Origin: a virus
IMG/VR virus record: IMGVR_UViG_3300049027_000072
Span: 1 to 64,000 of that record
Reading direction: 5' to 3' (one strand)
DNA length: 64,000 nt
Position 1 is the first letter of the stretch. Every line of letters starts with the position of its first letter. Both the position numbers and the translations under genes were made by a program. Below are positions 17,728 through 58,746 of the stretch, piece by piece. The notes beneath the pieces were generated by a model. The model was given only the letters and a program-made list of their open reading frames with translations, made no database searches and was not told the origin of the DNA.

Positions 17728-18042
17728 ATGAACGACCAGCACGCAAATAACGAGCAACGCCTTGCTGACATCGACAAGCGGTTGGACCGTGGCGCCGCAC
17801 GCATCGCTGAGTTGCAGATGTCGGTCGCCGAACTGCAGCGCGAGATGCGCGAGAACACCGCAATCACCACCGAGGTCCGCGATCTCCTGCAGCTGGCACG
17901 CGCAGGCCTGCGTCTGCTTGGAATCGTCGGCAATGTCGTCCGGTGGGTCGGCATGGTTGCCGGCGGTGCTATCGCGATCTGGGGCGCGTGCTATGCCGTG
18001 TGGTACGCGGTTACGCATGGCGGTCATCTGCCGCCGAAGTGA
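17728..18042 (+). CDS. Coiled-coil membrane protein of the lysis cassette (holin or lysis regulator candidate)
   Basis: ATG at 17728; 104 aa with an N-terminal coiled coil and a C-terminal hydrophobic segment LLGIVGNVVRWVGMVAGGAIAIWGACYAVWYAV. Confidence 0.5.
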   Translation: MNDQHANNEQRLADIDKRLDRGAARIAELQMSVAELQREMRENTAITTEVRDLLQLARAGLRLLGIVGNVVRWVGMVAGGAIAIWGACYAVWYAVTHGGHLPPK

Positions 18043-18050
18043 AGCCCGCC

Positions 18051-18659
18051 ATGATCACGATCGCGTCTCTGGTAGCTGCAGGCGTCAAGCCGACTCAGGC
18101 ACGACTGTTCGCCGAGCCGCTGCGCGCCGCGTGCGCGCTGTTCGACATCGCAACGCCGGCCCGCGTTTCTGCCTTCCTCGGGCAGTGCATGCTGGAGTCG
18201 AAGGCCTTCACCGACACCGAGGAAGACCTGTACTACCGCGCCCCTGAGCGCGTGCTCGAAGTCTTCGCCGGGCGTGTCACAAGCTTGGCGCGCGCTGCCC
18301 AGCTTGCGCGGCACCCGAAGGTTCTGGCGAACACGGTCTACGCCGGCGTGAACGGCAACACGGACCCTTGCGACGGCTGGCTTTACCGTGGCCGCGGGCT
18401 GATCCAGCTGACCGGCCGGGCGAACTACCGCGAGGCCGGGGCAGGGACCGGCCGCCCCTATGTCGACCAGCCCGACCTGGTGGCCGAGCCGTCCGATGCG
18501 TGCCTGTCGGCAGCTTGGTACTGGCACGCCCGCGGCCTCAACACGCTCGCCGACACCTGGCAGATCGATGCCATCACGAAGGCCGTGAACGGCCGCCGGA
18601 TGCTGCATGCCGACCTGCGCCGGCAGTACAGCGAACAGGCCCTGCACGCCCTGGCATGA
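18051..18659 (+). CDS. Endolysin, glycoside hydrolase family 19 (chitinase-like lysozyme)
   Basis: Motifs FLGQCMLESKAF and LYRGRGLIQLTGRANY; 202 aa. Confidence 0.8.
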   Translation: MITIASLVAAGVKPTQARLFAEPLRAACALFDIATPARVSAFLGQCMLESKAFTDTEEDLYYRAPERVLEVFAGRVTSLARAAQLARHPKVLANTVYAGVNGNTDPCDGWLYRGRGLIQLTGRANYREAGAGTGRPYVDQPDLVAEPSDACLSAAWYWHARGLNTLADTWQIDAITKAVNGRRMLHADLRRQYSEQALHALA

Positions 18660-18838
18660 ACACCGAGGACTACGCCGCGATCGAGCGGCACATCCGCGAG
18701 CAATCGAACGACGCCGTTCCGGAACCGCCTGATGGCGCACAGGTTCAGGACCGCACCGTGCAGGAGTTGAAGCGCGCCATCCAACGGTCGCGCCCCAAGC
18801 ATTTCACCCAAGGAGAAAAGGCTGATGAAGCTCGTTGA
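18656..18838 (+). CDS. Small hypothetical protein in the lysis cassette
   Basis: ATGA overlap with the endolysin stop; 60 aa. Confidence 0.45.
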   Translation: MNTEDYAAIERHIREQSNDAVPEPPDGAQVQDRTVQELKRAIQRSRPKHFTQGEKADEAR

Positions 18839-19097
18839 GAACTGGCAGCAGGCCCCGCGCATGTACGTCGTGCAGGTGCTGGCCGTGATTGCCATCGTGC
18901 AGGCCGTATGGGCCGAGCTGCCGCCAGAGATCGTGGCCAAGCTGCCTGCCGGATTCGTCCACTACGTCACCGCCGCGCTGGCGGTTGGCGGAATCGTCGC
19001 TCGCGTGATCAAGCAGTTCTACGCGCAACAGGGCCAGCAGGACGAGCAGTGGCCTGTGACCCACCCAGAAGACCCAACCAAGGACGCCCACCAATGA
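18825..19097 (+). CDS. Holin candidate (two transmembrane segments)
   Basis: 90 aa with two hydrophobic helices (MYVVQVLAVIAIVQAVW and FVHYVTAALAVGGIVARVI) and a charged C-terminus. Confidence 0.55.
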   Translation: MKLVENWQQAPRMYVVQVLAVIAIVQAVWAELPPEIVAKLPAGFVHYVTAALAVGGIVARVIKQFYAQQGQQDEQWPVTHPEDPTKDAHQ

Positions 19098-19447
19098 AAC
19101 GATTCGCCTGGGGATGGCTCGCCATCTTCGCTTTCGCAATGCTATCGGCCTGCGCCAGCCTCGGCGTGCCGCCGGCTGACACCTTCGCCAAGCGCCTTGC
19201 AGCGGGCTACGTCACGGTGCAGACCGTCGCCGACAGCGCGGCCAAGCTCCATGCCGCCGGGCGCATCACCTCGGACGAGGCGCGGCATGTCCGGTCCGGG
19301 CTGCAAGAGACGCTCGCCGGTCTCGACGCCGCGCGCGCCGTCGGTGCCACTGACCCCGCCGCTGCACAAACCCGCCTGCAGGCCAGCATCCAGATGCTCA
19401 CGGCTCTACAGGCCTACCTCTCCACCAAGCAAGGGACGACCCCATGA
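19094..19447 (+). CDS. Lipoprotein (o-spanin candidate)
   Basis: ATGA overlap. The signal peptide has a lipobox: MKRFAWGWLAIFAFAMLSAC. Confidence 0.55.
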   Translation: MKRFAWGWLAIFAFAMLSACASLGVPPADTFAKRLAAGYVTVQTVADSAAKLHAAGRITSDEARHVRSGLQETLAGLDAARAVGATDPAAAQTRLQASIQMLTALQAYLSTKQGTTP

Positions 19448-19647
19448 AGACCGCAGAGCTACTCGATGTGATCCTCGTCGGACTGACACATCTTGCCGAG
19501 CTGCAGGCGCTGTACCAGCGCGCCGCAGCCGAGGGCCGCGACCTCACGCCCGAAGAGGTGGAGCAGGTTCGCGCGAAGGCCGTGGGCGCCATTGATTCTC
19601 TCGGACGCCAGATCGAGACTGCAGCCACCGATAGTCATCCGGGATGA
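19444..19647 (+). CDS. Hypothetical protein
   Basis: ATGA overlap; 67 aa; last gene of the + strand late block. Confidence 0.45.
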   Translation: MKTAELLDVILVGLTHLAELQALYQRAAAEGRDLTPEEVEQVRAKAVGAIDSLGRQIETAATDSHPG

Positions 19648-19691
19648 TGAGACTGGGCCGCGCGGGGAAACTCGCGGCACTGCTACAGGCA

Positions 19692-19901
19692 TCAGCTGCC
19701 GCGCGGCGTAAGCCACACCCGATCAATGATGCAGTCGACATCAACCCCGCGGCCCGCCGGGATGATGGTCGGCGCGTCAGAGCCTGGTAACCAAAGCAAT
19801 GTCAGGCCATCGGCCGTGACGTCGATGTGTATGCGCTGCAACCCGTCATTCGTGTGCGGCAGTGCCACCTGCGCATTTGCATACCTCGCAAGCTCGGTCA
19901 T
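19692..19901 (-). CDS. Hypothetical protein
   Basis: 69-aa ORF convergent with the late operon; no recognisable motif. Confidence 0.35.
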   Translation of the reverse strand: MTELARYANAQVALPHTNDGLQRIHIDVTADGLTLLWLPGSDAPTIIPAGRGVDVDCIIDRVWLTPRGS

Positions 19902-20016
19902 TAGATCCTCTCCGTCAGTTGCAGGTCAGGGAGATGGTAGCCGCCCCAAGATCTAGGGAGGGCACATCGGATGCTGGCCCCTCGTTGCACCACAACGTCG
20001 CAACGAGGAGTTCACC

Positions 20017-20718
20017 ATGGGCATCCACAGGATCTGGTCCACGGGTATGGCAGCGCTCGTGCTGGCACTGCCGGTTAGAGCGGCAATAGTTCCCGGTCCG
20101 CAGACCTTCGCTTCGATCGGGCCGGTAGAGGGCGCCGTGATCGACATGGACCTCAACGACGGGGTGGAGGCAGCCATCTCGTTCTCGTTGACCGAGTACC
20201 GCTCGCATGAGCTGGTTGGCTTCCTGCAGGACCTGGACACCGGCCACGTGACAACGTCGGTATTCGACACGCGCTTCACAGAATCCGACGCAGTGAACCC
20301 GGATGAGGTGCTGCTCGCGCAGCCATTCACCGCCGATACCGAGTTCGCTCCGTGGCGCGTCGTCGATCAGATCAGCATTGGCGAGTCATGGGATGTCGGC
20401 ATCACGCCAAACACCCGCGTGACCATTCGGATGCAAGCCTCCGCGCATGAAGCGGCCCCATATCGGGGTAGGGCGTCCGCCTCATTCAACGTTGGAGGCC
20501 AGTCGTTGAGCGAAGTCCTGACGGAGGGTATGAAGACGTTCGAGTTCTCCTTCACGACGGGCGCTGCAACAGCACAGGCTACCTTCGCCCGGGCAGTGCA
20601 GGCCGACACAGCTGCGCAGCGCCTTGGAGACCCGATATCGCCCGTTCCGGAACCGGCTGCCTGGGCGATGATGCTGGCCGGTATGGGTGCTGTTTTGCTA
20701 CGTCGCCGCGTCCAATGA
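20017..20718 (+). CDS. Secreted PEP-CTERM sorting-domain protein
   Basis: N-terminal signal peptide (MAALVLALPVRAA). The C-terminal SPVPEPAAWAMMLAGMGAVLLRRRVQ has the PEP motif, a TM helix and an Arg cluster. Confidence 0.75.
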   Translation: MGIHRIWSTGMAALVLALPVRAAIVPGPQTFASIGPVEGAVIDMDLNDGVEAAISFSLTEYRSHELVGFLQDLDTGHVTTSVFDTRFTESDAVNPDEVLLAQPFTADTEFAPWRVVDQISIGESWDVGITPNTRVTIRMQASAHEAAPYRGRASASFNVGGQSLSEVLTEGMKTFEFSFTTGAATAQATFARAVQADTAAQRLGDPISPVPEPAAWAMMLAGMGAVLLRRRVQ

Positions 20719-20892
20719 ACGTCGGCCTGTGCGCCTTGACCCGACCCAGACAATGCCGCCTCCGAGAAGGAACATGGCCATCGTTTCAGGCTCTGGCACG
20801 GGGCTGGCGATGACGGGCAGTGTGCTCAGGTCGAGTACCCACAGCCCTGTCCCGCCGCTACACACCATACCGCCCCCCTCATGCGGCGGCAT
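20698..20892 (-). pseudogene. Remnant of a second PEP-CTERM gene (C-terminal sorting tail only)
   Basis: The 64-aa ORF contains SPVPEPETMAMFLLGGGIVWVGSRRTGRR and has no signal peptide. Its 3' end overlaps the 3' end of the convergent PEP-CTERM gene. Confidence 0.45.
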
Positions 20893-20985
20893 GCTACGGA
20901 ACGCGCCGCGAGCCTAGAATGACGAAGCCCGCAGACGAGTGCGAATCGCTGCGGGCCCCTGACCAATCGGCGAAAGGACCGCTTC

Positions 20986-21288
20986 ATGGCTGCCGACAAT
21001 CCTACCCTCACATCGGACGACTGGAAGGCGTACGTCGGAGACGTGGCCGCCCGCGCGGCGGATGAGGAACGCCGCGCCGCGCTGATGGCCCAACTTGCCC
21101 AGGCCGAGCGGCTGCTTTTCGACGAGGGCTACACGACCGACGACCCGTGGCCCGGGATCGTCTACAAGCCCGGCCACGTAGGCTCGGAGCGGCGCGTCGA
21201 TATCGATACGTGGGTGATGATGCGAGCCCTTGTGCGCGGCATGGGAGAGGCGATATTGCGGCAGGACGCCAAGCGACAGGCCCGCTAG
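20986..21288 (+). CDS. Hypothetical protein
   Basis: 100-aa ORF with balanced composition. Confidence 0.45.
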   Translation: MAADNPTLTSDDWKAYVGDVAARAADEERRAALMAQLAQAERLLFDEGYTTDDPWPGIVYKPGHVGSERRVDIDTWVMMRALVRGMGEAILRQDAKRQAR

Positions 21289-21418
21289 CCCTTGTCGTGC
21301 CGCGACTGCCATGCCTTGCGCTCGTTCGCCAGCGTGCTCTGCGCCTTCTTCGTGAGGTCGGCTTCCCCTCCGCGTCGATGAGCACCTCCGTGACGCTGCA
21401 ACGTCGGCTCGCCTACTG

Positions 21419-21613
21419 TCACCCCTCAACATCCCCACCCGGCGAGATGAGCTTCGCGCCGTGCCCGCTTACCGATGCACGAACGCTGAACCAGCGCTTG
21501 CGGGCGAGGGTTTCGCTCTTGAACGAGCCAAGCTCCTTGTCGCCGAGCACGATGCGCCAGCGGCCAGAATCGGACGACGGTGGATGCTTTGGCTTGCTCG
21601 GCTTCGTGACCAC
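21419..21613 (-). CDS. Hypothetical small protein
   Basis: 64-aa ORF. A further 45-aa ORF (21285-21422) is GTGA-coupled to its stop. Confidence 0.3.
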   Translation of the reverse strand: MVTKPSKPKHPPSSDSGRWRIVLGDKELGSFKSETLARKRWFSVRASVSGHGAKLISPGGDVEG

Positions 21614-21833
21614 GATCTAGCGTAGGTGGATGAGCGGTCCGGGCGCTACTCCGGATCCTCGGATTGCACGATTTCGGGACCATACCGACGTTGCGCCGGC
21701 CACTTGAAGCGCTGTGCTGAACGTTGGCCTCTTTCGCGTGCTGGCTGCCGGGATCCCCGAGGCCCACGTCTGGGCGTGTCTGCTTTCCACGCCGCCGCTC
21801 ATCGCCCGACAATTGTAGGGAACCACAAGAAGA

Positions 21834-22223
21834 ATGCGCCTCTTCCTCGTCTCCATACTGCTCGCTGGTTGTGCCGTGCAGGCTGACACCGTGACCGTGC
21901 AGCCGCTCGTAGAGCAGCGCTACTGCGGCCCGCCAGCGCGAAATCCGGACGGCTCGATCCGGCGCCGTGCGGACGTGCTGGCTGCGTTCCAGCGCGCGCA
22001 CCCATGTCCGTCCACCGGCGCAACGACAGGGGCTTGCCCTGGATGGTCCAAGGACCATGTCGTGCCACTTGCCGCCTGCGGCTGCGATGCCGTCTCGAAC
22101 CTGCAGTGGCTCCCTGACGGCGCGAAGTCAGCGTCCGGCGACCTGCCGAAGGATCGATGGGAGCGGAAGGTCTACACGTGCCCGGGAGCGCCCGCCCCGG
22201 CGGTGCTCGATCCAGGCGCCTGA
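21834..22223 (+). CDS. Lipoprotein with an HNH-nuclease-like motif
   Basis: Lipobox MRLFLVSILLAGC. The motif is FQRAHPCPSTGATTGACPGWSKDHVVPLAACGCDAVSNLQWLP...KDRWE. Confidence 0.6.
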   Translation: MRLFLVSILLAGCAVQADTVTVQPLVEQRYCGPPARNPDGSIRRRADVLAAFQRAHPCPSTGATTGACPGWSKDHVVPLAACGCDAVSNLQWLPDGAKSASGDLPKDRWERKVYTCPGAPAPAVLDPGA

Positions 22224-23224
22224 CGACCACGACTCATCAGGCGCTGCCGCATTGAGCCGGCAGCCTCGTAGGCGGCGCGGGCCATGCCGGTGAACGTGCG
22301 CATGTTGCAAGCCATGAGCCCGATCCGCTCGCGCCGGTGCGTCATCCACGCGGCTTTGTACGGGTCGTCGCCAGTGAGGTAGTCCACCTCTGTGACCTTG
22401 TCGACGTCCAGCGCATGGCGCATCAGGTGCGCTGTGAGCAGCGTGCCGGCTGAGGTCTTTGCGTATTCCTCGTCGTAGGCGAGCTTCCAGATGTGCGCCT
22501 TGCCGTCGACGACGAACCAGAAGTGGGCGGCGATGGGCACGCCGCACATTGAGGCAATACCCAGCCGCAGCCACCCGCGCTCGGCGCAGATCCTGGCCCA
22601 GCCGCGGGCGAAGTTAGGGTAGGGCTCCGGCTGCTTCCATGACTTCGCGTAGACCGCCTCGTAGGCATCCATGCCCGCGTCCACTTCATCCGGCTCCGTG
22701 AAGATCCGAAGATCGCCGGGGAACGCCTTGCCCTTGCGGGTGATGGTGTTGCGCAACTGCGAGCCGCGCCCCTTGAGGTAGGTCTCGAAGGGCTGGCCGG
22801 CCAGGTACCAGTTCCCATGGCAGAAGTAGCGCCGGACGTACCAGTGCCTGTCCTCCAGCGCCGTCTGGAGCTCGCCGGTGGACGGTTCCTCGGCATCGAG
22901 CGGTCCGAATGCGATCCACGGGCAGCGGTTGAGTTCGCGCACCAGGTGCCGCGCGGGGCTGGATTCGCCGGTGGTGACCCATGGGGTGTAGAGGCTGGCG
23001 TAGTAGTTGGTCAGCGGCCGGACGGTGCGGCCGTCGTCGTAGAGCAGCATCACGCTCTCGCCGCCGATCAGGCTCTCGGGCGCGAGGATGGTCCAGCTCG
23101 GCTCCACGATCTGTTCGACCAAGTGGAGCAGCCAGGCCGACTTCGCGAACGGGTTTGTGCAGGCGTCGAAGATTTCAGCCCGCGATTCGACGAACGCGAG
23201 CGCTTCGGCTTTTGATAGCCGCAT
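22172..23224 (-). CDS. FemAB/CelD-like GNAT acyltransferase (Acetyltransf_6-type)
   Basis: ATG at 23224 is preceded by GGGAGAGGG. Motifs are YAKSWKQPEPYP, GWLRLGI..M.GVPIAAHFW....GKAHIWKLAYDEEYAKTSAGT and DYLTGDDPYKAAWM. Confidence 0.65.
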   Translation of the reverse strand: MRLSKAEALAFVESRAEIFDACTNPFAKSAWLLHLVEQIVEPSWTILAPESLIGGESVMLLYDDGRTVRPLTNYYASLYTPWVTTGESSPARHLVRELNRCPWIAFGPLDAEEPSTGELQTALEDRHWYVRRYFCHGNWYLAGQPFETYLKGRGSQLRNTITRKGKAFPGDLRIFTEPDEVDAGMDAYEAVYAKSWKQPEPYPNFARGWARICAERGWLRLGIASMCGVPIAAHFWFVVDGKAHIWKLAYDEEYAKTSAGTLLTAHLMRHALDVDKVTEVDYLTGDDPYKAAWMTHRRERIGLMACNMRTFTGMARAAYEAAGSMRQRLMSRGRQAPGSSTAGAGAPGHV

Positions 23225-23345
23225 GTGGTTGTCCCTCTCCCATTCCGCCCCTATGGCCGGTAACGACCGCTGGCGGATGGGCAAAAGCTGTATGGGTGAA
23301 CCCCTATCGAGAGGGGAAGCGATGGCGTCTTTTGGGGGTGACGCG

Positions 23346-23368
23346 ATTCACTCATTCCTCACACACGA
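23346..23368 (+). repeat. Direct repeat copy 1 (ATTCACTCA-N4-TCACACACGA); candidate Int arm-type site
   Basis: 19 of 23 nt are identical to 23533-23555. It overlaps a perfect 10-bp hairpin (23357-23380). Confidence 0.5.
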
Positions 23369-23399: not shown

Positions 23400-23450
23400 C
23401 GCGGGTTGCGGGCTGGCCGCCAGGGGGTTCGAGTCCCTCCGGGCAGGCCA
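23400..23450 (+). other. tRNA 3'-end-like fragment (T-arm, acceptor strand, CCA); attP/att core candidate
   Basis: GGGGG-TTCGAGT-CCCTC (23423-23439), then CGGGCAG-G-CCA (23440-23450). No complementary 5' acceptor strand (CTGCCCG) lies upstream, so this is not an intact tRNA. Confidence 0.5.
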
Positions 23451-23532: not shown

Positions 23533-23555
23533 ATTCACTCACTTTTCACACACGA
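23533..23555 (+). repeat. Direct repeat copy 2 (ATTCACTCA-N4-TCACACACGA), overlapping the int stop
   Basis: See copy 1. The two copies flank the tRNA-like segment, 187 bp apart. Confidence 0.5.
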
Positions 23556-24738
23556 GTGGAGTCTCGGGTGCGGTCCAAAGTCTTGCCATCCCATACTTGC
23601 GCGGCGGCCTGTCAAAGCCTAACCGCTCGCCTTGCTCCACCCAGCGGCCGTAGGTCCGAATGACCATCTCCACGGTCTTGTGGCCGAGCAGCTTGGCGAT
23701 GTAGGCCGGGTTCTCGCCTTGGCTCAGGAGCTGGCTCGCGAAGGTGTGGCGCAATTGGTATGGGTTGCGGTAGGCAATCCCGGTGTGCTTGTGGGCGCGC
23801 TTCCACACTCCGGCCAGCTTCTTGTCGTCCCACGCCTTGTCCTTACGCGTGCTGCGCGCGTTCTGGAACACGCGGTCGCCCGATAGCAGGGTGAACTGGC
23901 GCTGCAGCTCGAACGCTTCGAGCGCTGCCGGCAGCAGCGGGATAGTGCGCCGCCCGGCCTTGGTCTTGGGGCGCGGCTTGTCCTTGCGCTCGGTGGTCGT
24001 CTCTTCAATGCGGATGGAGCCCGCCTCCAGGTCCACGCGCGGCCAGCGCAGGCCGACCTGCTCGCCGGTGCGCACCCCGGTGTAGGCCCAGGCCTGGAAC
24101 ACGTACCGCTCTGCCGGCGGCAGGTTGGCCAGCAGCGCGTGAATCTCCGCCTCGGTGTACGGCTCCGGCTCGAAGTCGCTCTCGCGCTTGTCGGGCGGCA
24201 CGAGGCCGGCGAGGTCGACCCGGTCCAGCGGGCTCGTCTTGATGATTTCGTCGGCCACGGCCTCGTTGAGCACATTCCGCAGAGGCAGCAGCCGGTTGCG
24301 GATGGTCTTGAGGCACACCGTCTGCAGGCCGACCCATTCCCGGATGTCTGCCGGCGTGAGGTCTGGGATGCGCTTGGTGCCGCACCAGGGCACGAGCTGG
24401 TGGTCGATGGCCTTGCGGTACGCTGCAAAGGTCGATGCCTCCAGGGTGTTCTTCACTCGGTCGCGGTAGGCCTCCAGCGCATCCTTGAGCGTCGGCGTGC
24501 GTCCTGGCCCGTGGCCGAAGACCGCGGCGCGCGGCGACTTCGGGAAGTAGTCGTCATAGCGGAAGTCGCCCCGGGTGATCTTGCCCAGGATCTCCGCGCG
24601 TAGGCGCTCACAGTAGGTGTCGTTTGCCTTGGTGTGGGGCAGTGCCAGCGGCTCGCGGCACTGCACCCCCATGAATGAAAACGCGATGCGGTAGAGCTGC
24701 TTGCCACCCTTGCGGGTGACGCGCGTAATGCCGTTCAC
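23539..24738 (-). CDS. int: Tyrosine integrase
   Basis: C-terminal catalytic motifs ...LRHTFASQLLSQGENPAYIAKLLGHKTVEMVIRTYGRW. The GTG at 24738 overlaps the xis stop (GTGA). The alternative listed start is 24810. Confidence 0.9.
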   Translation of the reverse strand: MNGITRVTRKGGKQLYRIAFSFMGVQCREPLALPHTKANDTYCERLRAEILGKITRGDFRYDDYFPKSPRAAVFGHGPGRTPTLKDALEAYRDRVKNTLEASTFAAYRKAIDHQLVPWCGTKRIPDLTPADIREWVGLQTVCLKTIRNRLLPLRNVLNEAVADEIIKTSPLDRVDLAGLVPPDKRESDFEPEPYTEAEIHALLANLPPAERYVFQAWAYTGVRTGEQVGLRWPRVDLEAGSIRIEETTTERKDKPRPKTKAGRRTIPLLPAALEAFELQRQFTLLSGDRVFQNARSTRKDKAWDDKKLAGVWKRAHKHTGIAYRNPYQLRHTFASQLLSQGENPAYIAKLLGHKTVEMVIRTYGRWVEQGERLGFDRPPRKYGMARLWTAPETPLVCEK

Positions 24739-24944
24739 TTTCTTTTTCCGTGCTGGTGGGCGGGCGTCTTCCCCGCCGCCCAGTCCTCCACCGCCCGTAG
24801 GTTGATCCACAGGTCACTGCTCCCCTCAGGTTTCCTTGCGTGTACATCCCGCAGCCAATGGCCGCGGCGTAGCCGGGCTGTGACGGCTTCAGCCGTCTCG
24901 CCGGTCGTGGCGATGTACCTTGGAAGTGGAACCCAGTCCAACAT
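24735..24944 (-). CDS. xis: Excisionase-like DNA-binding protein
   Basis: 69 aa immediately upstream of int and coupled to it. Sequence is WVPLPRYIATTGETAEAVTARLRRGHW...WINLRAVEDW. Confidence 0.65.
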   Translation of the reverse strand: MLDWVPLPRYIATTGETAEAVTARLRRGHWLRDVHARKPEGSSDLWINLRAVEDWAAGKTPAHQHGKRK

Positions 24945-44664: not shown

Positions 44665-44754
44665 ATGGCACTCCCACTGCTGATGTTCATGGTCGTGTCG
44701 CTGGTGCTGATGTTCTTCGGCGGGCGTGAGGTTGCGAGGGCCCGTCATGGCTGA
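44665..44754 (+). CDS. 29-aa hydrophobic micro-ORF (MALPLLMFMVVSLVLMFFGGREVARARHG)
   Basis: It starts 2 nt after the previous stop and its stop overlaps the next ATG region; not in the track; speculative. Confidence 0.25.
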   Translation: MALPLLMFMVVSLVLMFFGGREVARARHG

Positions 44755-55549: not shown

Positions 55550-56980
55550 ATGCCGGTTGACTCGCAACACGCAGACTTCTCTGCCGCCTTGGCGCGCTGG
55601 GAACGCGCCCGTGACGCGGCCGCCGGCCAGGATGCCGTGCACGCCAAGGGCGCGCGGTACCTACCGAAGCTGGCAGAGCAGACGGACACGGAATACGACG
55701 GATACAAGTGCCGGGCGCTGTACTACAACGCCACGGGCCGCACGGTGGACGGGCTGACCGGACTGGTGTTCCGCCGCGAGCCTGCCGTCGAAATCCCGGA
55801 CGCGCTGGACTACCTGCGCGAGGACATCGATACCTGCGGTACGCCGCTGCTGGCCTTCTCCGAGAAGGTCGTGGACGAGCTGCTCACGGTCGGTCGCCTG
55901 GGCCTGCTGGTGGACTACCCGCCGCTGCAGACTGCACGCACCCAGGCCGAAGAGAAAGCGGCCGGCGGCCGGCCCTACATCAAGACCTACTGCGCCGAGT
56001 CCATCATCAACTGGCGCGTGCAGCGCGTGGGCAATCGCAACATGCTCACACTGGCCGTGCTCAAGGAGCAGGCCGAAGAGCGGGATGACGATTACACGGT
56101 CAAGATGGCCGACACATGGCGTGTGCTGCGCTTGGCGGATGGCGTCTACACCCAAGAGCTCTGGCGCAAGAACCCGAATAAGCAGGACGAGTTCATCCTG
56201 GTGGATGGTTACCCGGTCACGCCGCTCATGGGCGGCAAGCCGATGGACTTCATCCCCCTGCTCATCTGCGGCCCCATGGGCGTCGATGCGTGCGTCCAGA
56301 AGCCGCCGATCCTTGACCTGGCGGACGTCAACATCTCGCACTACCGCACGACCGCGGACTACGAGCACGGGCTCCACTTCACCGGGTTGCCAACGCCCAT
56401 CGTCACCGGCCACCAGTTCTCTGATGGCGAGACGTTTGCGCTGGGCAGCACGACCGTCAAGGGGTTCCCGAATCCGGACGCGAGGGCCACCTTCCTGGAG
56501 TTCCAGGGCACCGGGCTCACCCAGCTGTCCAAGCGGCTGGACGAGAAGGAAGCCATGATGGCTGCCCTCGGCGCGCGCATGCTCGCCGCCGAGAAGCGCG
56601 CCGCAGAGGCGGCTGAGACGGCAGCGATCCACCGGGCAGGCGAAAACAGCGTGCTCGGGTCGCTGGCCAATGCAGCCAGTGCAGCGATCAGCAAGGCGCT
56701 GAACTGGTGTCTCCAGTGGGCTGGGGTGCAGGCTGAGGCGAAAGTCGAGCTGAACACCGACTATCTGCCGACCGGCCTGAGCGCCCAGGAAGTGACGGCG
56801 CTGGTTGCTGCGTGGCAGGCGGGTGCGATTTCGCACCGTACCTTGCACGACAACCTATTGCGCGGCGAGGTGGCACGCCAAGGCGTGGACTTCGACGAAG
56901 AGAAGTCGGAGATCGAGAGTGAAGGGCCGAAGCTGGGCGCGATGGAGGATCCGGCGGCTGGTGGTAGCGGCGGGGCCTGA
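55550..56980 (+). CDS. Portal protein (DUF4055-type)
   Basis: 476 aa between terL and the MuF-like gene; its N-terminal region resembles DUF4055 portals. Confidence 0.75.
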   Translation: MPVDSQHADFSAALARWERARDAAAGQDAVHAKGARYLPKLAEQTDTEYDGYKCRALYYNATGRTVDGLTGLVFRREPAVEIPDALDYLREDIDTCGTPLLAFSEKVVDELLTVGRLGLLVDYPPLQTARTQAEEKAAGGRPYIKTYCAESIINWRVQRVGNRNMLTLAVLKEQAEERDDDYTVKMADTWRVLRLADGVYTQELWRKNPNKQDEFILVDGYPVTPLMGGKPMDFIPLLICGPMGVDACVQKPPILDLADVNISHYRTTADYEHGLHFTGLPTPIVTGHQFSDGETFALGSTTVKGFPNPDARATFLEFQGTGLTQLSKRLDEKEAMMAALGARMLAAEKRAAEAAETAAIHRAGENSVLGSLANAASAAISKALNWCLQWAGVQAEAKVELNTDYLPTGLSAQEVTALVAAWQAGAISHRTLHDNLLRGEVARQGVDFDEEKSEIESEGPKLGAMEDPAAGGSGGA

Positions 56981-58746
56981 TGGCCGGTTCCGTCAACGAG
57001 CAGCTGGCCGAGGCTGATGTCGGCCACCAGGTCGACCTGCATCAGTACGCCAACGGCGTCGTTCGCAAGCTCATTGCTCTGCTGAACCGCACCGACGCTG
57101 ACCTAGCGGCGCAGATCGCCGCGGCGCTCGAGCGCATGTCCGCATCCGCATTCACCGTCGAACGGCTTGAATCGCTGTTGGCATCGGTACGCAGCTTGAA
57201 CGCCCAGGCGTACGCCGTGCTGCACAAGGAGTTGGAAGGCGAGTTGCACGACCTCGTCGAGTACGAGGCCGGCTACCAGCTGCAACTGTTCCGCTCGGTG
57301 ATCCCGCCGCAGGTGGTGCTCGCTGTCGGGGTCGATACGGTCAGCATCGACCAGGTTTATGCCGCCGCGATGTCCCGGCCGTTCCAGGGGCGGCTGCTCA
57401 AGGAATGGGCGGCCAGCCTTGAGACAGGGCGGATGGCGCGTATTCGCGACGCGATCCGCATCGGCTACGTCGAGAACCAGACGATTCCGCAGATCGTCCA
57501 GCGCATTCGTGGCACGCGGGCGAAAAGCTACGCCGACGGCTTCCTGGAGACAGATCGCCGGCATGTCGAAGCGGTGGTGCGCACAGCCATCAGCCACACG
57601 GCGAACTTCGCCCGAAACAAGTTCTACGAGGCGAACAGCGACCTGATATCGGCCGTGGTCTGGACGTCTACCCTTGACGCCAGGACCAGCGAGCCGTGTC
57701 GGCTGCGTGACGGCAAGCGCTACGACGCAGAGACACACAAGCCGATCGGGCACAAGCTGCCATGGGGCGGCGGGCCCGGGGCGTTCCACTGGTGCTGCCG
57801 GTCGGTGGCCACGCCAGTTACGAAGTCCTGGCGAGAGCTGGGGCTGGACATTGAGGAGTTCTCACCGGCGACCCGCGCCAGCATGGATGGCCAGGTCCCG
57901 GCAGACACCACGTACGGCGAGTGGCTGAAGAACCAGTCCACAGCCAGGCAGGACGAGATCCTCGGGCCCGAGCGTGGCGCGCTGTTCAGGCAGGGAAAGC
58001 TGCCGCTGGATCGTTTCGCCAACGACCGCGGCAAGTGGCTTTCGCTGGACGAACTGCGGGAGAGAGACGCCAAGGCCTTCGAGCGCGCCGGGCTGGACAA
58101 TCCGATGCGAGCGCCACGCGGCCAGCCGCAAGATGAGATCGCCCGCTTCCTGGCGTCCAAGCCCGACCAGAGGGAACTGCTCGACCGCCTCTACGCCGCC
58201 GAAGGCGACCGGCTGTCAGATCACATGGCGCTGGTATCCAAGGTCAAGGCGGAGCAGGAGTACCGATCGACAGAGGAATCCCTGGCGGCGGTGCGCTACT
58301 ACACAGGGTCCGGGTACGCGGAGGTCAACCGACGAATGCGTGAGTCCGGCGGCACGCTGGAAGATCGCCAGTTCACGGCCCTGACGGCATCGGCCCTGCC
58401 CGGGATGAAGCCGTACCATGACGAGGTGTGGCGGTCGCCGACGACGCGAAAGGCCAATGCCGACAAGTGGTGGGACAAGGCCACCGTGGGCGAGCCGATG
58501 GACATCGGGAACCAGCTGCAGTCGTTCAGTGCGTCGGCCAACATGGCGGCGCAGTGGGCGATGAAGGGTGACGTACTGCTGAGAATTGCCAAGCCCAGAG
58601 GCGGCGCTTACATTGCCCCGGTGTCACAGCACGACACCGAGAAGGAAGTGCTGTTGCCGCCTGGGCAGAAGTACCGTGTGGTCGGGAAGTCGGTCAAGAC
58701 GGTGAACGGGCGCGAGATGCGCGTGATCGACCTGGAGATCGAGTGA
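56980..58746 (+). CDS. Head morphogenesis protein (Mu F / SPP1 gp7 family) fused to a C-terminal ADP-ribosyltransferase domain
   Basis: MuF motif TSTLDARTSEPCRLRDGKRYD. The ART R-S-E triad is YYTGSGYAEVNRRMR, QSFSASANM and DTEKEVLLPPGQKYRV. Confidence 0.75.
   Translation: MAGSVNEQLAEADVGHQVDLHQYANGVVRKLIALLNRTDADLAAQIAAALERMSASAFTVERLESLLASVRSLNAQAYAVLHKELEGELHDLVEYEAGYQLQLFRSVIPPQVVLAVGVDTVSIDQVYAAAMSRPFQGRLLKEWAASLETGRMARIRDAIRIGYVENQTIPQIVQRIRGTRAKSYADGFLETDRRHVEAVVRTAISHTANFARNKFYEANSDLISAVVWTSTLDARTSEPCRLRDGKRYDAETHKPIGHKLPWGGGPGAFHWCCRSVATPVTKSWRELGLDIEEFSPATRASMDGQVPADTTYGEWLKNQSTARQDEILGPERGALFRQGKLPLDRFANDRGKWLSLDELRERDAKAFERAGLDNPMRAPRGQPQDEIARFLASKPDQRELLDRLYAAEGDRLSDHMALVSKVKAEQEYRSTEESLAAVRYYTGSGYAEVNRRMRESGGTLEDRQFTALTASALPGMKPYHDEVWRSPTTRKANADKWWDKATVGEPMDIGNQLQSFSASANMAAQWAMKGDVLLRIAKPRGGAYIAPVSQHDTEKEVLLPPGQKYRVVGKSVKTVNGREMRVIDLEIE

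Follow-up and report, generated by a model that had tools for sequence, protein, structure and literature searches.

The window analyzed here is the whole stretch of 64,000 nucleotides (nt) that forms positions 1 to 64,000 of the IMG/VR virus record IMGVR_UViG_3300049027_000072, and the subject is an accessory ("moron") segment between the lysis genes and the attachment site of a temperate tailed phage. Two genes of this segment are central to the analysis. One encodes a secreted protein that ends in a PEP-CTERM sorting signal, and the other, on the opposite strand, encodes an acyltransferase composed of two GNAT domains, the family of which is found in bacterial exosortase-A (XrtA) loci. The island may be a lysogenic-conversion module with two genes that feed the exosortase (PEP-CTERM/XrtA) exopolysaccharide (EPS) system of the host, an interpretation that we hold at an even balance of belief and doubt. 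The features that carry the argument are the following (aa, amino acids).

19648..23345, no strand assigned: accessory segment of about 3.7 kb, between the lysis genes and attP
20017..20718, plus strand: secreted PEP-CTERM protein, 233 aa; a signal peptide is followed by an orphan passenger domain (about 185 aa) and by the tail at residues 209-232 (nt 20641-20712)
21834..22223, plus strand: small secreted HNH-motif protein, 129 aa, with the lipobox LLAGC and a conserved family of homologs
22172..23224, minus strand: double-GNAT acyl/aminoacyl-transferase (Acetyltransf_6), 350 aa, of an unnamed family found in bacterial exosortase-A loci

A first-pass annotation made from the sequence alone had named a secreted protein with a PEP-CTERM signal, a lipoprotein with an HNH-type motif, and a 350-aa GNAT of the FemAB/Acetyltransf_6 type on the opposite strand, all between the lysis genes and the att/int region of a temperate phage. 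These four assignments were borne out: the first and the third by the hidden Markov models run as a check, the second by the lipobox and by the conservation of the motif in homologs, and the location by the lysis cassette at 17728-19647, attP, the integrase, and the excisionase.

The gene for the 233-aa protein possesses an AGGAG ribosome-binding site 6 nt ahead of the ATG and a G+C content at third codon positions (GC3) of 0.74. Reading of the sequence indicated the N-terminal signal peptide MGIHRIWSTGMAALVLALPVRAA, with the charged residues H4 and R5, the hydrophobic core MAALVLALPV, and VRA-A. The C terminus is SPVPEPAAWAMMLAGMGAVLLRRRVQ, and its tail, VPEPAAWAMMLAGMGAVLLRRR, passes the curated cutoffs of TIGR02595 PEP_CTERM (25.4 bits; cutoff, 16) and of PF07589 (22.7 bits; cutoff, 20.7). 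All three elements of such a tail, PEP, a hydrophobic helix, and RRR, are located at the extreme C terminus, and no other open reading frame (ORF) of the window ends in a tail of the PEP-CTERM type. Two more specific models remained below their cutoffs, NF035944 (PEPxxWA-CTERM) with 30.8 bits instead of 35 despite the literal motif PEPAAWA, and NF038129 with 39.7 bits instead of 65 and with a match that covers the C-terminal 70 residues only. An exosortase gene is not present in the phage window.

The passenger domain is an orphan, with one homolog of 96% identity among 5.8 billion proteins. Orphan and diverse passenger domains are given as typical of the PEP-CTERM class by Haft et al. (2006, PMC1569441). 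An AlphaFold2 model of the protein calculated without an alignment was unusable (predicted local distance difference test [pLDDT], 39). The 96%-identical variant is encoded on contig L104 from another metagenome and differs in 16 codons, 7 of them synonymous and 9 non-synonymous, which supports a real gene. In the variant, M11 is replaced by Ile, which supports M1 as the start. The DNA of the two variants is 99% identical overall, with just 2 changes in the 450 nt 3' of the gene. Fifteen of the 16 changed codons are within codons 9-109 (20041-20345 of the window compared to L104), so that the N-terminal half is variable and the tail is conserved, invariant save for V232A past the RRR cluster. 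This clustering could be the result of a recombination tract or of a local diversification of the exposed part of the protein. A diversity-generating retroelement was rejected as its origin because the changes are not adenine specific.

Alternatively, the phage might use the 233-aa protein as an ordinary envelope protein anchored by its C-tail, for instance for superinfection exclusion or as a lysis accessory, with a tail that only resembles a PEP-CTERM signal. Its gene follows the lysis cassette on the same strand, the sorting domain is short, the scores are modest, and the family-specific PEP-CTERM models all stay below their cutoffs, as would be expected for such a protein. On the other hand, both general models pass their curated cutoffs, the three tail elements at the extreme C terminus are combined with an N-terminal signal peptide, no second ORF of the window possesses such a tail, and the tail remained the same between the variants, V232A excepted, while the N-terminal half varied. 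We consider this explanation improbable, and the assignment as a PEP-CTERM protein is used in the following.

The second central gene product, the 350-aa protein, matched PF13480 Acetyltransf_6 with 94.6 bits (cutoff, 22) at residues 157-290. An AlphaFold2 model based on a 36-sequence alignment reached a pLDDT of 90.9 and a predicted template modeling (pTM) score of 0.88 and displayed two GNAT domains in tandem; together with the PF13480 match, this shows that the label "FemAB-like GNAT" is accurate. An exhaustive family search resulted in 3,564 representatives when clustered at 50%; of these, 726 had E values of ≤1e-30, and the best were 45-56% identical to the phage protein. In alignment A2, the phage enzyme is 34-46% identical to 35 members, and the best genome tblastn segments reach 56%. 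All 25 invariant columns of the alignment are present in the phage enzyme, including N138, Y192, S195, W196, E200, R220, K247, D281, and K290. Many members encoded in XrtA cassettes (P0003, P0007, P0011, and others) are tandem duplications of about 720 aa with four GNAT lobes. Some members of the family have 900-1100 aa, and a few members carry ATP-grasp-like regions.

The first-pass annotation had further linked the acyltransferase to exosortase/EPS loci by way of TIGR03019, a FemAB-related family. The route was wrong and the destination right. Neither the phage protein nor 60 relatives matched TIGR03019 at E values of ≤0.001, and five proteins, the phage protein included, gave no match even at ≤10, in a library in which the siblings TIGR03097-03101 and TIGR03108 were present and the presence of TIGR03019 itself was not independently confirmed. 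The only NCBIfam match of the acyltransferase was a weak one at the fold level, to BspF. The phage enzyme consequently stands outside the TIGR03019 clade, an outcome that the first-pass annotation had listed as a refutation, and its connection to exosortase loci comes from its own family. Both families are FemAB-like, of the Acetyltransf_6 type, and linked by gene neighborhood to exosortase-A EPS loci; that of the phage enzyme is separate from TIGR03019 and is typically located beside TIGR03098, an acyl carrier protein (ACP), and TIGR03099-03101.

This association was derived from a scan with one genome per species, which yielded 563 relatives, of which the best 80 loci were examined; the chromosomal relatives are 40-56% identical to the phage enzyme. 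These 80 loci are mostly from Burkholderiales, Rhodocyclales, Nitrosomonadales, and Chromatiaceae. At least one marker of the XrtA system was present within the available flanks of up to 10 kb in 52 of the 80 loci, and at least two markers were present in 47 (tblastn). When only loci with full 10-kb flanks were counted, a marker occurred in 31 of 43. As counted from the per-locus gaps, a marker was the immediate neighbor in 34 loci, with the ligase in this position 16 times, the ACP 13 times, a hydrolase 7 times, and the decarboxylase and the O-ligase type 3 times each. The neighboring genes are thus those for TIGR03098 (ligase), TIGR03099 (decarboxylase), TIGR03100 and TIGR03101 (hydrolases), the ACP, and proteins of the TIGR03097 and TIGR03108 types. 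In locus L006, the markers scored above the curated cutoffs, with 747 bits for TIGR03098, 621 for TIGR03099, 323 for TIGR03100, and 292 for TIGR03101. The homolog P0005 from Pseudaquabacterium inlustre, 48% identical over the matched stretch, is flanked on one side by an ACP gene and by fused "hydrolase 1/2, exosortase A system-associated" genes, and these neighboring markers also score far above the curated cutoffs. A PEP-CTERM gene was located within 10 kb of the enzyme homolog in 6 loci. Since the cassette occupies well under 1% of a genome, the association with XrtA is not due to chance. The family of the enzyme, which has no NCBIfam model of its own, is a regular component of exosortase-A loci. 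With an XrtA-linked family on the one strand and a PEP-CTERM tail on the other, both cargo genes point to one host system.

The loci without a recognized cassette were considered as well. A pooled NCBIfam scan of 127 of their neighbors gave a heterogeneous picture with few XrtA families, among them TIGR03108 three times and TIGR03097 twice, as pooled counts that are not resolved to loci. The sister of the phage enzyme in the neighbor-joining tree, L010, is preceded by genes for an asparagine synthase and a Wzy_C/DUF5935 O-ligase, and it was genes of these kinds that matched TIGR03108 and TIGR03097 in the pooled scan.

The fold allows a different assignment of the enzyme. A Foldseek comparison of the model to the PDB placed MprF synthase domains and FemX on top, with E values of about 1e-11, template modeling (TM) scores of 0.55-0.62, and a probability of 1.0, and the top matches (MprF synthase domains, FemX, and Sba18/Sbb17) are all aminoacyl-tRNA-dependent transferases. 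The modeled tandem-GNAT fold resembles overall that of FemX (1ne9, 7z6a) and of the MprF synthase domain (5vrv, 7f47, 4v35). The GNAT might accordingly act like MprF or FemX on a target other than EPS, in an aminoacyl-tRNA-dependent aminoacylation of membrane lipids or peptidoglycan precursors, and would alter the charge or the cross-links of the envelope, for example toward resistance to cationic peptides or superinfection exclusion, independently of an exosortase. A stand-alone enzyme needs a universal donor such as aminoacyl-tRNA, and the phage supplies neither a ligase nor an ACP. Against this stand the sequence identity of just 12-16% and the TM scores of 0.55-0.62, the FemAB and DUF2156 models, which do not match the phage protein, and the adenylating ligase and ACP beside the family in XrtA loci, a context that suggests an ACP-bound donor instead of aminoacyl-tRNA. 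The phage enzyme also differs from MprF by the lack of a membrane domain. A search of PDB sequences with the GNAT returned only noise. This alternative appears quite unlikely to us, and the enzyme is treated in the following as a transferase related to the exosortase-A loci.

The position of both genes in a phage genome is defined by the attachment site and the genes that follow it.

23346..23368, plus strand: attP arm-type repeat, copy 1, 23 nt, ATTCACTCATTCCTCACACACGA, direct repeat with 23533-23555
23423..23450, plus strand: attP core, 28 nt, equal to the 3' end of tRNA-Arg(TCT) with T-arm, acceptor strand, and CCA
23533..23555, plus strand: attP arm-type repeat, copy 2, direct repeat with 23346
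23539..24810, minus strand: tyrosine integrase with Arm-DNA-binding domain (PF00589, 73.5 bits; PF12167, 61.9 bits; phrog_1, E 6.4e-58)
24735..24944, minus strand: excisionase (phrog_2917, E 7.6e-11)

The 23-nt direct repeat ATTCACTCAYTYYTCACACACGA (23346 and 23533) is located between the acyltransferase gene and int and brackets a sequence that resembles the 3' end of a tRNA; a complete tRNA gene was not found in the window by ARAGORN. The 28 nt of the core are identical to the 3' end of tRNA-Arg(TCT) in locus L012, a metagenome-assembled genome (MAG) of Rubrivivax sp., which was a chance find among the fetched loci. On the metagenome contig L095, a 70%-identical integrase adjoins a complete tRNA-Arg(TCT) and a tRNA-Pro (1-1523), which marks this contig as a lysogen junction. 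The core match to the tRNA of L012 and the junction of L095 indicate that the attP site is genuine and that tRNA-Arg(TCT) is the integration target of the phage. The arm-repeat motif also brackets the core in the relatives L095 and L097. In L096, L097, and L099, the same core and arm repeats are on the opposite side of int; compared with L095, this means that the integrase family uses both attP-int arrangements. An exact 32-mer from the attP arm had no matches in the metagenome scan. In a lysogen, the island would be located at the int-distal end of the prophage.

The window covers the greater part of a contig of about 68.5 kb, for which the JGI (metagenome 3300071358) and Logan (SRR35218543) provide independent assemblies, and has a G+C content of 65%. 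Genes for a tape-measure protein of 909 aa and a tail fiber of 1459 aa are located at 8-17 kb, the lysis cassette follows, and behind the accessory segment, int and xis (23.5-24.9 kb) lead into early genes, all on the minus strand. The large terminase, the portal, a head-morphogenesis protein, and a P22-type coat protein are encoded at 54-62 kb. The order of tail genes, lysis genes, accessory segment, att, int, xis, and early genes indicates an excised temperate phage genome. A megablast of the 17-25 kb region against the phage collection found no similarity to GenBank phages at the DNA level. The structural modules are mosaic across the Proteobacteria, with 65% identity of the large terminase to that of an Acinetobacter phage and 74% identity of the coat protein to that of a Caulobacter phage. 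The head-morphogenesis protein (SPP1 gp7-like; 56980-58746) showed a C-terminal match (residues 531-585; E 8.6e-8) to a PHROG labeled as an ADP-ribosyltransferase exoenzyme toxin. Further features in and around the segment are as follows.

17728..19647, plus strand: lysis cassette with a holin-like ORF, GH19 endolysin, DUF7940 ORF, Rz-like lipoprotein, and 67-aa ORF
18051-18659, plus strand: GH19 endolysin (phrog_181, E 1.3e-60)
19094-19447, plus strand: Rz-like lipoprotein, from the gene calls and Pfam matches of the lysis cassette
19692..19901, minus strand: 69-aa ORF, divergent from the PEP-CTERM gene, GC3 0.73
20986..21288, plus strand: 100-aa ORF, GC3 0.82
21289..21833, no strand assigned: region without a convincing gene, with fragments in two minus-strand frames that resemble a decayed ORF

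The gene order of the lysis cassette is identical on the phage contig L087. The segment itself is variable cargo: in L091, the sole IMG/VR contig with a related integrase (58% identity), it is absent and the lysis genes directly abut attP and int, and none of five metagenomic integrase relatives contained genes of the island. Apart from the weak HNH matches described below, no gene of the segment matched a PHROG of known late or early function. The 69-aa ORF is included in the gene calls of both assemblies and has no family matches; the 100-aa ORF is kept in the variant contig L104 and gave no matches in NCBIfam, Pfam, PHROG, or PADLOC. In the region without a convincing gene, the minus-strand fragments …GRWRIVLGDKELGSFKSETLARKRW… and …LTKKAQSTLANERKAWQSRHDKG* in two frames of 21289-21613 resemble a frameshifted and decayed small gene, and the fragment GRWRIVLGDKELGSFKSETLARKRW recalls an integrase arm-binding or AP2-like motif. 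A known defense system was dropped as the identity of the island because PADLOC gave no matches for 8 island ORFs, and an Rfam search of 19.4-25.2 kb found nothing.

The third recognizable protein of the segment, the 129-aa lipoprotein, had no Pfam or NCBIfam match and only weak PHROG matches to endonuclease VII (E 5.8e-4) and HNH (E 6e-3). The motif DHVVPL..C.CDAVSNLQW...KDRWE is kept in 933 homologs of 50-80% identity, all of which possess N-terminal signal sequences, and the nearest members of the family also bear a lipobox. Residues D74, H75, N89, W92, K106, D107, R108, and E110 are invariant in the HNH-family homologs, and across 26 aligned homologs, D74, H75, and N89 are invariant together with the conserved cysteines, of which there are four. 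Some homologs are labeled "HNH endonuclease signature motif containing protein" or "McrA." The family, which has at least 933 members and is not covered by a Pfam or NCBIfam model, is frequent in phage contigs (L087-L090), in the neighborhood of head, lysis, or terminase genes. For a nuclease that assists the terminase, secretion of an "HNH" protein would be unusual. In place of this conserved gene, both public gene calls contain an overlapping, Arg-rich, minus-strand ORF of 210 aa (21426-22058), which has no homologs and the appearance of junk.

With respect to the host, the first-pass annotation had predicted a GC-rich, exosortase-bearing proteobacterium. The evidence for this is indirect. 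It consists of the tRNA-Arg(TCT) core, shared with the Rubrivivax MAG, and of the homologs from Burkholderiales and Rhodocyclales. Four tRNA-Arg(TCT) genes were seen in the fetched loci, and all of them share the acceptor stem CGGGCAG-G-CCA with the att core: those of L012 (Rubrivivax MAG), L065 (Burkholderiales MAG), L045 (a MAG labeled just Proteobacteria), and the unclassified metagenome contig L095. L012 and L095 share the complete 28-nt core. In L045 and L065, tRNA-Arg is followed by tRNA-His and not by tRNA-Pro. The GNAT homologs are from Betaproteobacteria and Chromatiaceae, one HNH homolog is named as coming from a Burkholderiales MAG, and the G+C content of 65% is a further supporting point. 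Among the members of these lineages are species that are classical examples of PEP-CTERM carriers, namely Nitrosomonas europaea, Dechloromonas aromatica, and Thiobacillus denitrificans (Haft et al. 2006, PMC1569441), as well as Aquincola (PMC9850573). From these sequence comparisons, the host appears to be betaproteobacterial and is probably a member of the Burkholderiales. The PEPxxWA variant of the tail was not seen in the fetched betaproteobacterial loci, which weighs against a firm host call, and a search for the tail among plasmids found nothing.

Two candidate regulatory elements are located upstream of the PEP-CTERM gene.

19876..19881, plus strand: TTTGCA, possible remnant of a PrsR-type enhancer (TTTACA end, Haft motif 1); the -24/-12 element follows 78 nt downstream
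19960..19975, plus strand: candidate sigma-54 promoter GGGCAC-N6-TGCT (GG-N10-GC), GGGCACATCGGATGCT, 41 nt before the PEP-CTERM ATG

Most proteobacterial PEP-CTERM genes are single-gene units, and 99 of 167 genes possess a cis signature in which a 17-nt motif with TTTACA at its end is separated by about 63 nt from a sigma-54 -24/-12 element (Haft et al. 2006, PMC1569441). The promoter of Aquincola pepA has been mapped and is RpoN dependent (PMC9850573). In the fetched loci, TGTCG-N7-TTTACA followed by TGGCAC..(A/T)TGC(T/A) is present upstream of 5 of 6 bacterial PEP-CTERM genes, and the phage -24/-12 candidate resembles the TGGCAC..ATGCT elements of these genes and the mapped pepA promoter. 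The composite of a -24/-12 element and TTTRCA occurs once in the window compared to 0.055 expected occurrences, with a pattern that was relaxed after the data had been seen. The TTTRCA hexamer is strongly underrepresented in the window, with 6 occurrences on both strands versus about 24 expected from a first-order Markov model. Another sigma-54-like element, TGGCACTCCCACTGCT, is located at 44666-44681 (plus strand) in the gap before a plus-strand replication/helicase operon starting at about 44.7 kb and may be there by chance. The sigma-54-like promoter upstream of the PEP-CTERM gene is suggestive and should be regarded as a lead, not as a finding.

When these data are combined, a sequence of events can be proposed. 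The tailed phage with its long tape-measure protein would integrate at tRNA-Arg(TCT) of a GC-rich proteobacterium, probably of the Burkholderiales. In the lysogen, the late operon would be off, and the PEP-CTERM and acyltransferase genes would each be served by their own upstream region. With its own ribosome-binding site and the possible sigma-54 promoter, the former may be expressible from the repressed prophage alongside the PEP-CTERM regulon of the host; the latter would be transcribed on the opposite strand from the region beside attP. The 233-aa protein would leave the cytoplasm through Sec and stay anchored in the inner membrane via the C-terminal helix until an exosortase of the host cuts at the PEP motif and sorts the protein, which would result in a phage-specified protein in the cell surface or EPS matrix. 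In the cytoplasm, the double-GNAT may acylate or aminoacylate an intermediate of the EPS pathway that is linked to the exosortase, and the chromosomal relatives presumably do likewise beside their ligase/ACP/decarboxylase/hydrolase cassette. In this way, we infer, the layer of slime and surface proteins on the host cell is probably remodeled by the prophage, and the altered surface may keep related phages from adsorbing, affect flocculation, or do both.

Several observations weigh against this interpretation. The two cargo genes do not form an operon; they are convergent and 1.45 kb apart, with two other genes between them. About half of the own clade of the phage enzyme in the neighbor-joining tree lacks a recognizable XrtA context, and its nearest neighbors, L009 and L012, have housekeeping genes around them and no XrtA context. 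The phage carries none of the ligase, ACP, decarboxylase, or hydrolase partners, and its GNAT stands alone beside attP. The PEPxxWA-type tail is unlike the PEP[GAS]xLAL tails encoded beside the betaproteobacterial homologs of the enzyme, so that an exosortase of another type may be the cognate one. No host signal comes from the structural genes, and the best match of the capsid protein is that of the Caulobacter phage (74%). Concerning the promoter, the enhancer candidate is weak because only the 3' half of the 17-nt motif is matched, at 7 of 17 positions, and a loose scoring for -24/-12 elements results in 149 matches in the window, hence without significance.

Part of these observations would be explained if the PEP-CTERM gene and the GNAT were unrelated hitchhikers that had been acquired separately, the GNAT perhaps from DNA beside the integration site. 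The convergent orientation without cotranscription, with two ORFs between the genes, and the housekeeping neighbors of the nearest relatives agree with this. In L012 (2426-3870), tRNA-Pro and tRNA-Arg(TCT), the latter being the att tRNA of the phage, are followed after about 200 nt by the start of a GNAT homolog of 51% identity, and in L009 (9559-11023), the homolog follows just after tRNA-Ser(GGA), so that this sub-lineage of the enzyme, judged from its location, may travel with tRNA-integrating elements. As the sequence reads, the orientation of the tRNA and the GNAT in L012 is incompatible with a simple aberrant excision of this phage, and the phage retains int and a complete attP. For both reasons, a simple capture of the GNAT beside attB by specialized transduction was rejected. 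Two of about five cargo genes pointing to one sporadically distributed host system would also be a notable coincidence, and the GNAT family as a whole is strongly linked to XrtA. Separate acquisition is consequently judged rather unlikely.

The interpretation as a lysogenic-conversion module can be compared with known systems. In Sf6, oac encodes a surface-modifying acyltransferase and is likewise found on the strand that does not carry the late genes, where it separates the tail spike gene, the last of them, from int/attP and has its own promoter. The island is accessory and absent in relatives (L091), as are Sf6-type modules. Oac is a membrane-bound O-antigen acetylase that acts on lipopolysaccharide (LPS), whereas the phage enzyme here is predicted from its sequence to be a soluble double-GNAT with relatives in exosortase/EPS loci. 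The island additionally brings a candidate substrate of a host sorting system. For an acyltransferase family that is tied to exosortase systems by its gene neighborhood, there is also a precedent, in what is probably another enzyme family. With the chromosomal PEP-CTERM/exosortase system (EpsH, XrtA; PMC1569441), it shares the signal peptide, a passenger without homologs, the C-terminal PEP, helix, and basic cluster, the single-gene unit, and the possible sigma-54 element upstream. The differences are the location on a phage, the PEPxxWA tail, and an upstream region of just 115 nt without a convincing PrsR motif.

According to the first-pass annotation, conversion of the exosortase/EPS surface system is not known from phages, and full-text searches of the literature found no paper on phage-encoded PEP-CTERM proteins. 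Neither the GNAT nor the PEP-CTERM protein had a tblastn match in 50,697 GenBank phages or a match in the IMG/VR scans; this absence from phage collections rests on BLAST-level searches with these particular proteins. The tails alone gave no match at E values of ≤10 in the phage collection, a result with limited meaning due to the short queries and the low-complexity filter. The island may be the first recognized case of a virus using exosortase sorting, in which a prophage PEP-CTERM substrate, placed in the sigma-54/PrsR regulon of the host, and an additional XrtA-pathway transferase jointly redecorate the EPS or floc matrix of Burkholderiales and thereby alter flocculation or exclude competing phages. 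This more specific proposal is tentative, and we hold it with less than even confidence.

Lysogenic conversion from the att end of a prophage is known, and the novelty would be the target system. The phage gene flags a large GNAT family, with several hundred representatives at 50% clustering and no NCBIfam model of its own, as a possible core part of exosortase-A loci. If the proposed function is correct, the exosortase system would be a target of viral host manipulation, and the two genes would be a minimal portable pair for tests of sorting and modification in a lysogen compared to a cured strain. They would also represent a new class of surface-conversion cargo alongside the LPS-modifying genes of enterobacterial phages.

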